Below are positions 1 through 3,346 of a stretch of DNA of 3,346 bases, piece after piece. The notes under the pieces are model-generated. The model worked only from the letters and a program-made list of their open reading frames with translations. It was not told the origin of the DNA and made no database searches. How positions within the stretch are numbered: the first letter of the stretch is position 1; each line of letters starts with the position of its first letter. Origin of the DNA: a virus (lineage: Duplodnaviria > Heunggongvirae > Uroviricota > Caudoviricetes); IMG/VR virus record IMGVR_UViG_2529292726_000026, one strand, 5' to 3'. The position numbers and the translations under genes were made by a program.

Positions 1-612
1 ATGGCAGCAGTAAAAATCTCAGGTGTGCTGAAAGATGGTGCGGGAAAACCAATACAGAACTGCACTATTCAACTGAAGGCAAAGCGTAACAGCACCACGG
101 TACTGGTGAACACGGTGGCCTCTGAAAATCCGGATGAAGCCGGGCGTTACAGCATGGATGTTGAGCATGGCCAGTACAGCGTCACCCTGCTGGTTGAAGG
201 TTTTCCGCCTTCACATGCCGGAACCATTACCGTCTATGAAGGTTCCAGACCAGGTACGCTGAATGATTTTCTCGGTGCCATGACGGAAGATGATGTCATG
301 CCGGAGGCATTGCGTCGTTTTGAGGCAATGGTGGAAGAAGCGGCACGCAACGCCGAAGCCGCCTCTCAGAGCGCAGCGGCGGCAAAGAAATCCGAAACTG
401 CAGCGGCATCATCGAAGAACGCGGCGAAAACCTCAGAAACGAATGCAGCTAACAGCGCACAGGCGGCAGCGTCCTCGCAGACTGCATCGGCAAACTCCGC
501 GACAGCAGCCAAAAAATCAGAAACCAACGCGAAAAACAGCGAGACAGCCGCAAAGACGAGCGAAACCAACGCAAAGTCCAGCCAGACGGCAGCGAAGACC
601 AGCGAAACGTAA
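1..612 (+). CDS. stf: Side tail fibre protein, N-terminal fragment (lambda Stf-like proximal domain followed by Ala/Ser/Thr-rich fibre repeats); ends at TAA 610-612
   Basis: Seen: ATG at 1, open in frame 1 to TAA 610-612. The first ~110 aa (MAAVKISGVLKDGAGKPIQNCTIQLKAKRNSTTVLVNTVASENPDEAGRYSMDVEHGQYSVTLLVEGFPPSHAGTITVYEGSRPGTLNDFL...) closely match the N-terminus of lambda Stf as recalled from memory. From about aa 120 onward the product is low-complexity KTSETNAK / AAKSSQ-type repeats typical of the Stf family. The length (203 aa) is far too short for a fibre, so this is a fragment. Confidence 0.8.
   Translation: MAAVKISGVLKDGAGKPIQNCTIQLKAKRNSTTVLVNTVASENPDEAGRYSMDVEHGQYSVTLLVEGFPPSHAGTITVYEGSRPGTLNDFLGAMTEDDVMPEALRRFEAMVEEAARNAEAASQSAAAAKKSETAAASSKNAAKTSETNAANSAQAAASSQTASANSATAAKKSETNAKNSETAAKTSETNAKSSQTAAKTSET
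553..608 (+). repeat. 56-bp direct repeat, copy 1 (55/56 identical to 747-802)
   Basis: Seen: aagacgagcgaaaccaacgcaaagtccagccagacggcagcgaagaccagcgaaac. The single mismatch is c567 versus t761. Read in frame 1 it encodes KTSETNAKSSQTAAKTSET. Confidence 0.9.
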
Positions 613-614
613 GC

Positions 615-2354
615 GTGCAGCAAGAACCAGTATTGACGGCGAAAAATAGCCAGAATGCAGCAGCCGAAAGCGAGAGCGCGTCAGCCGGTTCTGCGACTGC
701 AGCAGCTGGATCAGCAACTGCTGCGGCTAACAGCCAGAAAGCAGCGAAGACGAGCGAAACTAACGCAAAGTCCAGCCAGACGGCAGCGAAGACCAGCGAA
801 ACAAATGCCAAAGCCAGCGAAACTGCGGCGAAAAGCAGTCAGGATGCAGCAGCCGAAAGCGAGAGTGCTGCAGCTGGTTCTGCAAGTGCGGCGGCTGCTT
901 CTGCCACTGCATCAGCAAACAGTCAAAAAGCTGCAAAAACCAGTGAAACCAATGCAAAGACAAGCGAGACTGCAGCGGCGAACTCGGCGCAAGCATCGGC
1001 AGCAAGCCAGACAGCAGCTAAAGCAAGTGAGGATGCAGCCAGAGAGTATGCAAGCCAGGCAGCAGAGCCGTATAAATATGTCTTACAGCCACTGCCTGAT
1101 GTGTGGATACCGTTTAACGATTCACTGGATATGCTTGCTGGCTTTTCGCCTGGTTATAAGCAAATAACTGTAGGTGATGATGTTATTAAAATGCCATCCG
1201 ATAAGGTTGTTAGCTTCAAACGCGCATCAGGTGCAACATACATTAATAAATCAGGTGTATTAACCGTTGCTGAAGTTGACGAACCGCGATTTGAACGAGA
1301 AGGTTTGCTGATTGAAGGACAGAGAACAAACTATTTCAGAAATTCAAATACACCAGAAGCATGGAATAACACGGGTAGTGTGTCTGTTGAGTCGTTCGAC
1401 AGTGATAAGGGGTTTAACTATGGAAGGATAACTGTTATTAATGAAAATCCGACAGCACAAGGATATCAGGCAATTGCTGTAAACACGAATGATGCTTACA
1501 CCTGCCCGGCAGGTTCTTATACGACGATATCGTGTCTGACGAAAAGTGATAATTCCCGGTGTCGTGCAAGGTTCGGAAAAATGTCTGATAATGGTGCGTT
1601 TGTTTTTCATTCAGATGCAGCTCTGGATCCTGTTACGGGAAATGTTGTTCATGGAAATAATGTGACGGTGACGGCAGAAAGAGTCGGTGAATGGTGGTTG
1701 TTTACCGCCACTCTTTTTGCAGATGCGGAAATGATAATCAGCTCAAGATTTGAAATCCTGGCGATGCCTGGAATCAGTATTATCCCCAATGGCTCTACGT
1801 TAGATATTGCGATGCCTCAGGCGGAGATTGGGTCGTACAGGACGTCATTTATCATTACTGAAGGGGCTCCTGGCACTCGCTCCAGCGACATGGTGACAAT
1901 ACCTGTAAGAAACAATATTCACCGATTACCATTCAGTGCTCTTGTTGAAGTTAATAAAAACTGGGATATCCCTCCCAGCAAATCACCATTAATCTTTAAT
2001 GTTAAAGATTATCAGGAAAATGGTCTGTTCACGCATGGATTCCGTGGTAATAATTTCTCTGATGCCGGTTCTCCTTTTATTTCTATGGGAGGGTGTAATA
2101 AATATGTGGCAACAACCCAGAGGAAAATCATTTCAGGCTTCCGTTGTGGCGCTGATGGAGATGTTCAGGCCGTATGTAATGGTGAATTATCTGTTGCGGC
2201 AAAAACAACATGGACTTCAATTGTTCCACGGGCAGTATTGCGAATTGGAGGGCAGGGCACTAATGGGGAGTATCATCTTTTTGGTCATATCCGTAATCTG
2301 CGTATCTGGCATAAAGAATTAACTGATGCGCAAATGGGGGAGAGTATTAAATGA
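615..2354 (+). CDS. Side tail fibre protein, C-terminal fragment (fibre repeats, then distal receptor-binding region with LamG/ConA-like C-terminus); start codon uncertain
   Basis: Seen: frame 3 is open from upstream of 615 to TGA 2352-2354. Translation from about 640 continues the same repeat family as the first fragment (AKNSQNAAAESES...NSQKAAKTSETNAK). No ATG or convincing Shine-Dalgarno precedes it; GTG 615 is simply the first possible start, 2 nt after the upstream stop. The C-terminal residues (...GEYHLFGHIRNLRIWHKELTDAQMGESIK) resemble the terminal strand motif of LamG/concanavalin-A-like lectin domains (recalled motif, not searched). Confidence 0.7.
   Translation: MQQEPVLTAKNSQNAAAESESASAGSATAAAGSATAAANSQKAAKTSETNAKSSQTAAKTSETNAKASETAAKSSQDAAAESESAAAGSASAAAASATASANSQKAAKTSETNAKTSETAAANSAQASAASQTAAKASEDAAREYASQAAEPYKYVLQPLPDVWIPFNDSLDMLAGFSPGYKQITVGDDVIKMPSDKVVSFKRASGATYINKSGVLTVAEVDEPRFEREGLLIEGQRTNYFRNSNTPEAWNNTGSVSVESFDSDKGFNYGRITVINENPTAQGYQAIAVNTNDAYTCPAGSYTTISCLTKSDNSRCRARFGKMSDNGAFVFHSDAALDPVTGNVVHGNNVTVTAERVGEWWLFTATLFADAEMIISSRFEILAMPGISIIPNGSTLDIAMPQAEIGSYRTSFIITEGAPGTRSSDMVTIPVRNNIHRLPFSALVEVNKNWDIPPSKSPLIFNVKDYQENGLFTHGFRGNNFSDAGSPFISMGGCNKYVATTQRKIISGFRCGADGDVQAVCNGELSVAAKTTWTSIVPRAVLRIGGQGTNGEYHLFGHIRNLRIWHKELTDAQMGESIK
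747..802 (+). repeat. 56-bp direct repeat, copy 2 (55/56 identical to 553-608)
   Basis: Seen: aagacgagcgaaactaacgcaaagtccagccagacggcagcgaagaccagcgaaac. Read in frame 3 it encodes the same peptide as copy 1. Confidence 0.9.
2336..2344 (+). promoter_or_regulatory. Shine-Dalgarno (GGGGGAGAG) for ORF 2351-2632, inside the 3' end of the fibre gene
   Basis: Seen: purine-rich GGAG core at 2339-2342, 8 nt before ATG 2351; the stop and start overlap (ATGA). Confidence 0.6.
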
Positions 2355-2632
2355 AAGATTTAACACTCAAATTTGCAGACAGGGCCGACTTTTCGGCCTT
2401 TATGGAGAGTATTGGCTATTATGATGACGAGTCGATGCAGGATGATATTCTTATTGACGTGATAGGTAACGTGTACAAAGAAACCGGAGAACTGACTGAA
2501 GATGGCGAACCGGTATGTGTTAAGGAAGACGGATATTTTGTAAACGTGCGCATCATTAATGATGCAAAAAAATCGTCAATATTCGATAAATACGCGGTTG
2601 TTGTTGAGCATCAACTTCGTGGCTGGATGTGA
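2351..2632 (+). CDS. Hypothetical small acidic protein (93 aa), translationally coupled to the tail fibre gene
   Basis: Seen: ATG 2351-2353 overlaps the fibre stop TGA 2352-2354 (ATGA). A GGGGGAGAG Shine-Dalgarno lies at 2336-2344, about 8 nt upstream. Open to TGA 2630-2632. The product is Asp/Glu-rich with no family I recognise. Position between two fibre-related genes suggests a structural or assembly role (inference). Confidence 0.65.
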   Translation: MKDLTLKFADRADFSAFMESIGYYDDESMQDDILIDVIGNVYKETGELTEDGEPVCVKEDGYFVNVRIINDAKKSSIFDKYAVVVEHQLRGWM

Positions 2633-2638
2633 GGGAGA
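2631..2638 (+). promoter_or_regulatory. Shine-Dalgarno (GAGGGAGA) for ORF 2642-3346
   Basis: Seen: GGAG core at 2634-2637, 4 nt before ATG 2642; overlaps the TGA stop (2630-2632) of the upstream ORF. Confidence 0.6.
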
Positions 2639-2641
2639 CAA

Positions 2642-3346
2642 ATGGCTACATCGACAGTAATTCCAGGAGATATCACCACGCTAAAGGGAGATGTCAGTAA
2701 AACTAAGGAAGATATTTCCTCAATTAACGGAAAAGTATCAACGCTTCAGACTGATATGACCAGTGCAAAGCAGGATATCAGCACCAGATACACAAAAACT
2801 GAAGTTGATAATAAGCTGAAAAACAAACTGGAAGTGAATGCTCTGGAAAGCGGTAATTATGGTGGAGATTTTTACCCGCTGACTGGCCGTGAAGCATTTT
2901 ATTTATGGAATTTGGGCACGACTACAGCGGCGGCAAACCTTTATCTTAATCCTGACCCTGCAATTTCGTCTGTACTGCGGTCAACATCGTCTATTCGCTA
3001 TAAACATTCAGTAGAGACGATAGATTCAGAGCACGCCGATCTCATTTTCAGGATGCGCCCTGTGTGGTACAGGTCGCAATGCGAAAATGACAGGCGTGAC
3101 TGGGGATTCTATGGATTGATTGCCGAGGAAGTAGGAGAAATTGCCCCTCAGTTTGTTCACTGGCGACCAGCTAACGAAGATGATGCACCGGAAACCATTT
3201 CCAGCAATGGCCTTGTTGCCGAAGGTGTAATGTACGAACGTCTGGTTGTTCCACTGATTCACCATATCCAGAAACTGACTGAAAGAGTTGATGAACTTGA
3301 GTCAGAATTAAAGTTGTTATTAACTTCCCGAAGCGATATTAGATAA
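2642..3346 (+). CDS. Tail fibre domain-containing protein with C-terminal peptidase S74 intramolecular chaperone domain (234 aa)
   Basis: Seen: ATG 2642 preceded by GAGGGAGA (2631-2638), which overlaps the upstream stop; open to TAA 3344-3346. The N-terminal ~65 aa are heptad-like and polar (GDITTLKGDVSKTKEDISSINGKVSTLQTDMTSAKQDIS...). The C-terminal ~110 aa (SSIRYKHSVETIDSEHADLIFRMRPVWYRS...GFYGLIAEEVGEIAPQFVH...NGLVAEGVMYERLVVPLIHHIQKLTERVDELESEL) follow the recalled S74 / endosialidase-chaperone pattern, including a Ser-x4-Lys dyad at S116 and K121. Confidence 0.85.
   Translation: MATSTVIPGDITTLKGDVSKTKEDISSINGKVSTLQTDMTSAKQDISTRYTKTEVDNKLKNKLEVNALESGNYGGDFYPLTGREAFYLWNLGTTTAAANLYLNPDPAISSVLRSTSSIRYKHSVETIDSEHADLIFRMRPVWYRSQCENDRRDWGFYGLIAEEVGEIAPQFVHWRPANEDDAPETISSNGLVAEGVMYERLVVPLIHHIQKLTERVDELESELKLLLTSRSDIR
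2987..3316 (+). other. Peptidase S74 (intramolecular chaperone, auto-cleaving) domain within CDS 2642-3346; putative catalytic Ser codon 2987-2989, Lys codon 3002-3004
   Basis: Motif-level comparison to endosialidase C-terminal chaperone domains (catalytic Ser-Lys dyad in an SDRRLK-like context; here SSIRYK), followed by a GLIAQEV-like segment (here GLIAEEVGEIAPQFV) and a C-terminal helix. Domain boundaries are approximate. Confidence 0.7.

Follow-up and report, generated by a model that had tools for sequence, protein, structure and literature searches.

The window analysed here is a stretch of 3,346 nucleotides (nt) from a virus of the Caudoviricetes (IMG/VR record IMGVR_UViG_2529292726_000026), made up of four plus-strand open reading frames (ORFs) at the end of a lambdoid late operon (Table 1). 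The first two are the pieces of a broken side tail fibre gene (stf), the third encodes a protein of 93 amino acids (aa), here called p93, and the last encodes the subject of this article, a 234-aa protein with a C-terminal Peptidase_S74 domain, or intramolecular chaperone (IMC), which is probably a minimal subunit of the side fibre, as argued below. The 234-aa gene, which starts 9 nt after the stop codon of the 93-aa gene, is intact and has its own ribosome-binding site, and the 93-aa gene is translationally coupled to stf through the overlap of the two. A scan for promoters and terminators at the locus of the window prophage (L008 2300–4200, corresponding to window 2192–3346 plus 750 nt downstream) returned no terminator and one weak minus-strand promoter-like match against 3.0 expected from shuffles, so that there is no sign of the S74 gene being a separate transcription unit; an Rfam scan of the window matched no RNA family. 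Neither Stf product has an S74 match in Pfam. An earlier interpretation made from the letters of this DNA (the sequence-only reading), in which an S74 gene stands alone behind a fibre without a chaperone domain of its own, was thus borne out.

Table 1. Features of the window, with positions counted from its first nucleotide.
Feature	Position (nt)	Strand	Basis and remarks
Lambda-type side tail fibre gene stf, broken	1..2354	+	Two ORFs: 1-612 and 615-2354
stf anchor part, 203 aa	1-612	+	Pfam phage_tail_N, E 1e-67
stf remainder, 579 aa	615-2354	+	Different frame; phrog_1419 positions 210-793 of 793; NCBIfam GTA_spike_fiber at aa 232-423
93-aa protein gene (p93)	2351..2632	+	phrog_1361; ATG overlaps the stf stop as ATGA
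Shine-Dalgarno-like GGGAG	2633..2637	+	Read from the sequence; 4 nt before the ATG of the 234-aa gene
234-aa S74 gene	2642..3346	+	ORF list; stop codon 3344-3346; pre-protein 26.3 kDa
Conserved N-terminal motif MATSTVIPGDITTLK, codons 1-15	2642..2686	+	Common start of third-gene products; putative docking/anchor peptide
Heptad-like helical region, codons ~10-63	2669..2830	+	AlphaFold2 helices; weak coiled-coil matches; 7-aa indel
Short Gly/Tyr-containing beta-rich tip, codons 66-115	2837..2986	+	Kept in lambdoid and T1-like homologues; directly before the predicted cleavage site
Predicted scissile bond T115/S116 (T115|S116)	2984..2989	+	S74 profile position 1; T/S junction as in T5 pb1 T1263/S1264
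IMC (Peptidase_S74/ICA) domain, aa 116-234	2987..3343	+	Pfam, alignment, AlphaFold, fold matches
K121, general-base lysine of the Ser/Lys dyad (S+5)	3002..3004	+	Invariant in alignment; spacing as T5 S1264/K1269

The 234-aa protein carries an S74/IMC domain with an intact Ser/Lys dyad. The Pfam profile PF13884 (Peptidase_S74) matches aa 116–172 over its positions 1–57 of 58 with 27.2 bits (E 4.9e-6), above the curated cut-off of 22 bits, and residue S116 (nt 2987–2989) aligns with profile position 1. Across 35 aligned homologues (30–97% identity), neither S116 nor K121 varies. The AlphaFold model derived from this alignment has pLDDT values (predicted local distance difference test) of ~80–90 over aa 125–233, with a long C-terminal helix at 198–233, and its best fold matches in the PDB, identified with Foldseek, are solved IMC domains, namely the ICA domain of MyRF (7dc3, E 4e-6), that of GA-1 (3gud, probability 0.90) and that of endoNF (3gw6). 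Sequence searches of the PDB, conducted with the single sequence and with a profile, found only DT57C LtfA (8hqz_d, E 2e-7); T5 pb1 and endoNF were not reached by sequence but were reached by the fold search. These results agree with the sequence-only reading, which had placed an S74 domain at about aa 116–225 and the dyad at S116/K121, the domain now being drawn to aa 234.

Self-cleavage at T115/S116 with release of the IMC probably takes place, judging from the alignment, and would leave a passenger of 12.4 kDa and free an IMC of 13.9 kDa (predicted masses, the former matching the ~12-kDa mature product proposed earlier). In the IMC of T5 pb1, a T1263/S1264 scissile bond, an S1264/K1269 dyad and a sensor Arg at S-14 have been described (Garcia-Doval et al. 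2015, PMC4690869). The predicted features of the 234-aa protein are like those of T5 pb1 and the K1F endosialidase in the Ser and Lys at S and S+5, the T/S bond, the C-terminal trimeric helix and release after folding. They differ in that there is no Arg at the position of the T5 sensor, the nearly invariant Arg among homologues of the 234-aa protein being R113 at S-3, and in that the IMC of T5 pb1 and K1F ends a polypeptide of ~1000–1400 aa with a large passenger, whereas here it is encoded by a separate gene with a passenger of 115 aa.

This passenger, the smallest among the homologues examined, fits the earlier description of about 115 residues with a heptad-like stretch followed by a Gly/Tyr segment, in that AlphaFold2 places helices at aa 12–47 and 52–60 and the tip follows at aa 66–115. 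The helical region has weak matches to the coiled coil of the P22 gp26 needle and to repeats of DT57C LtfA, and a 7-aa indel at aa 17–23 shows that the number of 7-residue units varies among alleles. From the model, codons ~10–63 probably form a trimeric coiled-coil shaft.

The stand-alone gene is both frequent and conserved. With window 2300–3346 as query and at least 80% of it covered, the cassette was found in 719 of 5426 complete E. coli genomes (~13%, roughly one in eight), where its genes are always annotated separately. The E. coli B derivatives T7Express and C2566 (hits H135 and H143) carry it at ~95% identity, and common expression hosts may therefore already encode the S74 protein; the fibre in these two is annotated only as 'phage head spike fiber domain-containing protein' and may be truncated. 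In ~150 independent IMG/VR loci the gene after the 93-aa gene encodes 227–234 aa or 345–346 aa, with a single truncated copy, and the viable lambdoid phages IdasGreatGrand, PhiR49_1 and PhiR55_1 have the S74 cassette as well. Across 49 distinct alleles of the stand-alone gene the ratio of non-synonymous to synonymous substitution rates (dN/dS) is 0.16, with regional values of 0.20 (passenger), 0.13 (tip) and 0.12 (IMC), and this pattern of substitution indicates that the gene, its passenger included, is under purifying selection.

These data bear on whether the 234-aa ORF could be a functionless 3' remnant of a larger fibre gene left by rearrangement. An HMMER scan of 1.84 billion representatives yielded 3607 relatives, the nearest of which include both short stand-alone proteins and long fibres ending in the sequence of the 234-aa protein. 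Such long fibres match it C-terminally with 50–64% identity (P0065, 735 aa; P0068, 958 aa; P0071, 1243 aa; P0072, 1025 aa; P0073, 1009 aa), and its best PHROG match, phrog_3299 (E 1e-139), is likewise C-terminal, covering positions 1147–1383 of a 1385-column profile. P0065 and P0068 are single-chain lambda-type Stf proteins with a C-terminal IMC, and are alike to the window both in the phage_tail_N anchor (74–82% identical to window 1–609) and in the tip and IMC (57–59% identical to aa 50–233); they differ in being one polypeptide, in having no LamG-ended domain and in lacking the N-terminal docking motif of the stand-alone protein. Homologues of more than 600 aa that end in this sequence, which the sequence-only reading had named as a sign of truncation, do therefore exist in P0065 and P0068, and stf is broken in the window. 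Nevertheless, a remnant is highly improbable: the gene has its own Shine-Dalgarno sequence and ATG, its N-terminal motif, which the fused forms lack, is kept across five phage lineages, and only one copy of the gene among the ~150 loci is not intact; its dN/dS is that given above, and viable phages carry it. As homology to the fused fibres begins only at about residue 37–50, the first 36–49 residues are specific to the stand-alone form. The truncation remnant was rejected on ORF conservation, the N-terminal motif and dN/dS, and the occurrence of fused and split forms shows module shuffling and not truncation.

The order of fibre, ~92-aa gene and third gene recurs in lambdoid, T1-like, Seuratvirus, Dhillonvirus and T5-like phages. 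In the T1-like (Drexlerviridae) phage KarlJaspers the fibre, small protein and third protein are 41, 54 and 60% identical to those of the window, and the third protein has 510 aa in the cassette of Seuratvirus KurtStettler and 333 and 574 aa in those of the T5-like HMD-P4 and IrisVonRoten. In the Dhillonvirus 'rolling' (MN850575), the p93 homologue is followed by an ORF without annotation (L169 3770–4602), which starts MVTKTNIPADITALQN and is cut off by the end of the linear record; this third gene was missed because the genome record was opened at that place. The third-gene products (221, 227–234, 333, 346, 510 and 574 aa in length) all start with M[AV]T.T.IP.DI..LK over ~15 residues, after which the passengers differ completely, and S74/IMC homology was confirmed for those of 225, 234, 346 and 574 aa. 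In ~300 E. coli genomes the 3' end of the fibre gene, the 93-aa gene and the first ~15 codons of the third gene are kept before the sequence switches to a 346-aa allele, whose C-terminal part is again an S74 domain (E 5e-14). Alleles of 234 and 346 aa interchange behind identical Stf and p93. A peptide conserved at the N-terminus, joined to a variable passenger and an IMC, is typical of an exchangeable receptor-binding subunit, and would mark the third-gene products as such.

The proximal fibres of these cassettes differ in their N-terminal regions, which are of the phage_tail_N type in lambdoid phages and KurtStettler and unrelated to it in T1-like and T5-like phages, but share two blocks, one corresponding to aa 151–240 of the window Stf product and the other to a C-terminal HLFGH[IV]RN.R[IV]WHK.LTD, with variable sequence between. 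Because the anchors differ, the only partners common to these cassettes are the C-terminal region of the fibre and p93. In the lambdoid set, the N-terminal 5-mer of the third-gene product covaries perfectly with the end types of Stf and p93. It could be supposed that the mature trimer is instead an independent whisker on the virion, attached away from Stf at the tail tip, at the collar or through p93 alone, given that a contact between the 234-aa protein and Stf is predicted from indirect data, that p93 could itself be an adaptor and that Stf-less contexts with intact downstream genes exist, as in the window. This arrangement appears unlikely, however, as the motif-bearing third gene always lies directly after a LamG-ended fibre and p93 in five lineages with different N-terminal anchors, and the common partner must therefore lie within the cassette.

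A number of side observations were made on the ends of the cassette. Several prophages and phages have short 3' remnants of a tail fibre assembly gene (tfa) downstream of it (L001 9371–9490, L005 5738–5848 and L166 6296–6594), which suggests that an ancestral stf-tfa pair lost its distal part to the cassette through recombination. Behind the S74 gene, all 135 of the 135 loci that reach far enough have a fourth cassette gene, of 95–99 aa, for example at L008 3465–3758, just past the end of the window, and at L001 9058–9351, and it directly follows p93 in phages without the S74 gene. It has no Pfam or NCBIfam match; hydrophobic stretches (MDISPLLHALCAVAAQVLIGLFTGNWAYGAIAGCTFFIA) stand at the start of its product, which may be a membrane protein.

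Among systems already described, the gp22/gp23/gp24 module of phage IrisVonRoten (Bas32, Tequintavirus) has the same gene order as the window, with all three genes homologous. Its gp22 is 40% identical to the window fibre over ~570–676 aa and shares with it the HLFGH block and a LamG/galectin-like C-terminus, gp23 is 38% identical to p93 over 92 aa, and gp24 starts with the motif MVTKTVIPTDITKLK, compared with MATSTVIPGDITTLK in the 234-aa protein, the IMC regions of the two being 27% identical. The product of gene 24 has been described as a tail fibre of T shape that carries two receptor-binding domains (RBDs) and an IMC (Humolli et al. 2025, PMC11990801), and in the same work AlphaFold-Multimer predicted it to sit on gp22, the proximal fibre, whose end is a galectin-like domain. 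The systems differ in that gp24 has 574 aa, is T-shaped and contains a Gp12-like RBD1 and a T5-like RBD2, whereas the 234-aa protein has no RBD1, is homologous to gp24 in the N-terminal motif and the IMC but nowhere between them, and is not a T-shaped fibre with dual RBDs; the anchor of the window fibre is of the lambda Stf type and that of IrisVonRoten of the T5 type. The arrangement, which the sequence-only reading had called unusual, is in fact an ordinary one for E. coli siphoviruses, being carried by about 13% of complete E. coli genomes and by five lineages of siphoviruses, and being homologous to the described IrisVonRoten module.

Branched L-shaped fibres composed of LtfA and LtfB are known from phages DT57C and DT571/2 (Golomidova et al. 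2016, PMC4728585; Ayala et al. 2023, PMC10713586). In DT57C the second, IMC-bearing subunit LtfB is attached via LtfA by its conserved N-terminus (PMC4728585), which is reported to be related to phiEco32 gp15. The likeness to the window lies in a two-protein lateral fibre of a siphovirus in which the second subunit has pfam13884 and a conserved N-terminal attachment segment; in DT57C, however, both subunits have an IMC and no 93-aa gene is reported, whereas in the window only the distal one has an IMC. The RBPseg atlas also lists a class, TC7, that has a coiled coil N-terminally and an S74 domain C-terminally (PMC12143355) and by this description the same architecture, but the atlas took UniProt fibres of 300–3000 aa, so that 234-aa forms fall outside it.

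Of the two options left by the sequence-only reading, a minimal secondary fibre or adaptor is favoured by the modular architecture and the homology to IrisVonRoten, whereas a chaperone acting in trans on the neighbouring fibre has been weakened. In the latter, the S74 protein would not be a component of the virion and would aid the folding or trimerisation of Stf, a fibre lacking both IMC and Tfa. Short homologues in the BASEL phages KarlJaspers, PeterMerian and KurtStettler are indeed annotated 'putative lateral tail fiber chaperone', Stf lacks an S74 domain, and what related prophages have downstream is no more than tfa remnants. No Tfa-type family was found among the Pfam, NCBIfam and PHROG matches of the 234-aa and 93-aa proteins, and the window contains no gene of the Tfa type. 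There is also a precedent for stabilisation in trans in DT57C, where LtfA seemed unstable without LtfB (PMC4728585), and by analogy a distal subunit may stabilise the proximal fibre.

The distribution of p93 speaks against the S74 protein having such a role. Homologues of p93 were found in 186 phage records, covering lambdoid, T1-like, Dhillonvirus, Queuovirinae, T5-like and rV5-like phages, and p93 accompanied the LamG-ended fibre type in 13 of the 13 cassettes inspected. The viable lambdoid phages mEp460_4F5 and Lambda_ev203 have Stf, a 92-aa gene and a 97-aa gene with no S74 third gene, and the rV5-like phage CarlMeissner has a LamG-ended fibre and a p93 homologue, again with no S74 gene. 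An obligatory trans-chaperone role is unlikely, because viable lambdoid phages keep this fibre type and the 93-aa gene without the S74 gene. Identities to the window products in locus L007 are 46% for the fibre, 31% for the small protein and 94% for the S74 protein, from which it follows that p93 tracks the 3' end of the fibre when modules recombine. Being the invariant companion of the fibre, p93 appears from these comparisons to be a better candidate than the S74 protein for a fibre assembly factor, although it has no Pfam or NCBIfam family and its predicted fold gave no informative match.

Further evidence points in the same direction. Third-gene products reach 510–574 aa, with two receptor-binding domains described for gp24, the 234- and 346-aa alleles interchange behind an identical Stf and p93, and the passenger is under purifying selection. 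Schwarzer et al. reportedly observed in 2007 that an IMC fails to act in trans; no published statement that S74 IMCs cannot act in trans was found in the literature searched. Those IMCs that have been characterised act on their own chain and are then cleaved off (PMC4690869). The S74 protein is therefore rather unlikely to be a trans chaperone of Stf.

We consider it more probable, at roughly 60%, that the side (lateral) tail fibre consists of several components and has the 234-aa protein, in minimal form, as its distal or branch subunit, a probability that also covers the predicted steps of trimerisation, self-cleavage, Stf docking and receptor binding. Under this proposal the S74 gene would be co-transcribed with stf and the 93-aa gene and translated after them, and three chains would assemble via the C-terminal IMC (aa 116–234), which would template the folding of the beta-rich tip (~66–115) and the coiled-coil shaft (~10–63). 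In the folded trimer the S116/K121 dyad would cut the T115/S116 bond and the 13.9-kDa IMC would leave, giving a trimer of 12.4-kDa chains. The conserved N-terminal peptide (~15–30 aa) would then dock non-covalently on the conserved C-terminal part of Stf, with p93 possibly serving as assembly factor or adaptor in this docking, and the stub would form a small secondary tip, most plausibly one that binds a surface glycan.

A number of points weigh against a distal receptor-binding subunit. The AlphaFold2 monomer model, which is a single-chain model, is helical at aa 12–60 and has pLDDT below 50 over aa 64–115. The tip is conserved and not hypervariable, both among the 234-aa alleles and between lambdoid and T1-like phages, which is not typical of a tip that binds receptors and would be compatible with a purely structural role as well. 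At 50 residues it is far smaller than any characterised IMC passenger, that of T5 pb1 being a bullet domain of ~290 aa (PMC4690869). The covariation of the N-terminal 5-mer is confounded and may merely reflect physical linkage, and nothing usable on the virion proteomics of the 234-aa protein or its homologues was found in the literature. It is conceivable, if doubtful, that the 234-aa form is a self-processing cap or strut without receptor binding, whose 12-kDa coiled-coil stub would dock on the LamG/galectin-like end of Stf and either stabilise the fibre or occupy the site of the larger subunits. There is room for this because the tip is unusually conserved and LtfA seemed unstable without LtfB in DT57C; if true, it would mean a genuine assembly role in trans for the S74 protein, or a regulation of fibre function.

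The upstream fibre gene in the window is disrupted. Its second piece encodes the shaft and the GTA_spike_fiber/LamG-like C-terminal region, and MINF_1A has an intact 781-aa Stf orthologue. The lesion, at ~609–638, is a divergent patch of ~26–31 nt with 5 extra nt relative to the intact MINF_1A and IdasGreatGrand, which creates a TAA at 610–612 and a frameshift and lies inside a region of 21/42-nt Ala/Ser/Thr-rich repeats. An identical lesion is present in the E. coli draft assembly GCA_000356245.1 (contig APXK01000151.1); a 141-nt query over it (window 560–700) gave no complete E. coli genome above ~90% among the matches listed, and Stf is intact in 133 of the ~150 related loci. The lesion may be genuine, a pseudogenisation comparable to the stf frameshift of lambda PaPa, or may stem from misassembly of the repeat. 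If real, it separates the anchor from the shaft, so that side-fibre assembly is probably defective in the strain of GCA_000356245.1 and, as judged from its sequence, probably non-functional in the window prophage.

In GCA_000356245.1 the cassette is followed by an ORF of 97 aa, a transporter like sitABCD, and genes for a Usp-family protein, a porin and an enzyme of the pyruvate:ferredoxin oxidoreductase type, an order that resembles the uspF-ompN-ydbK genes beside the Rac prophage site of K-12. A manganese/iron ABC transporter of the sitABCD type lies directly behind the cassette both in the window prophage (L008 4110–7559) and in Lambda_ev203 (L171 3677–6273), and appears to be phage-borne cargo, as it occurs in both a prophage and a phage record.

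The 234-aa protein is a minimal member of a kind of fibre subunit that has already been described, and it does not constitute a new category. Its very small passenger makes it a convenient model for IMC-templated folding of trimers. If the proposed docking is correct, it would be of use for the re-targeting of lambda-type particles, for which Stf chimeras are already being engineered; the Eligo paper on lambda Stf engineering has nothing on the S74 cassette. It would also correct the widespread labels 'chaperone of endosialidase' and 'putative lateral tail fiber chaperone' for such proteins. In that case the first 15–30 residues would represent a portable adaptor, through which IMC-bearing tips with passengers of ~110–450 aa are joined to one type of side fibre in five lineages of siphoviruses.

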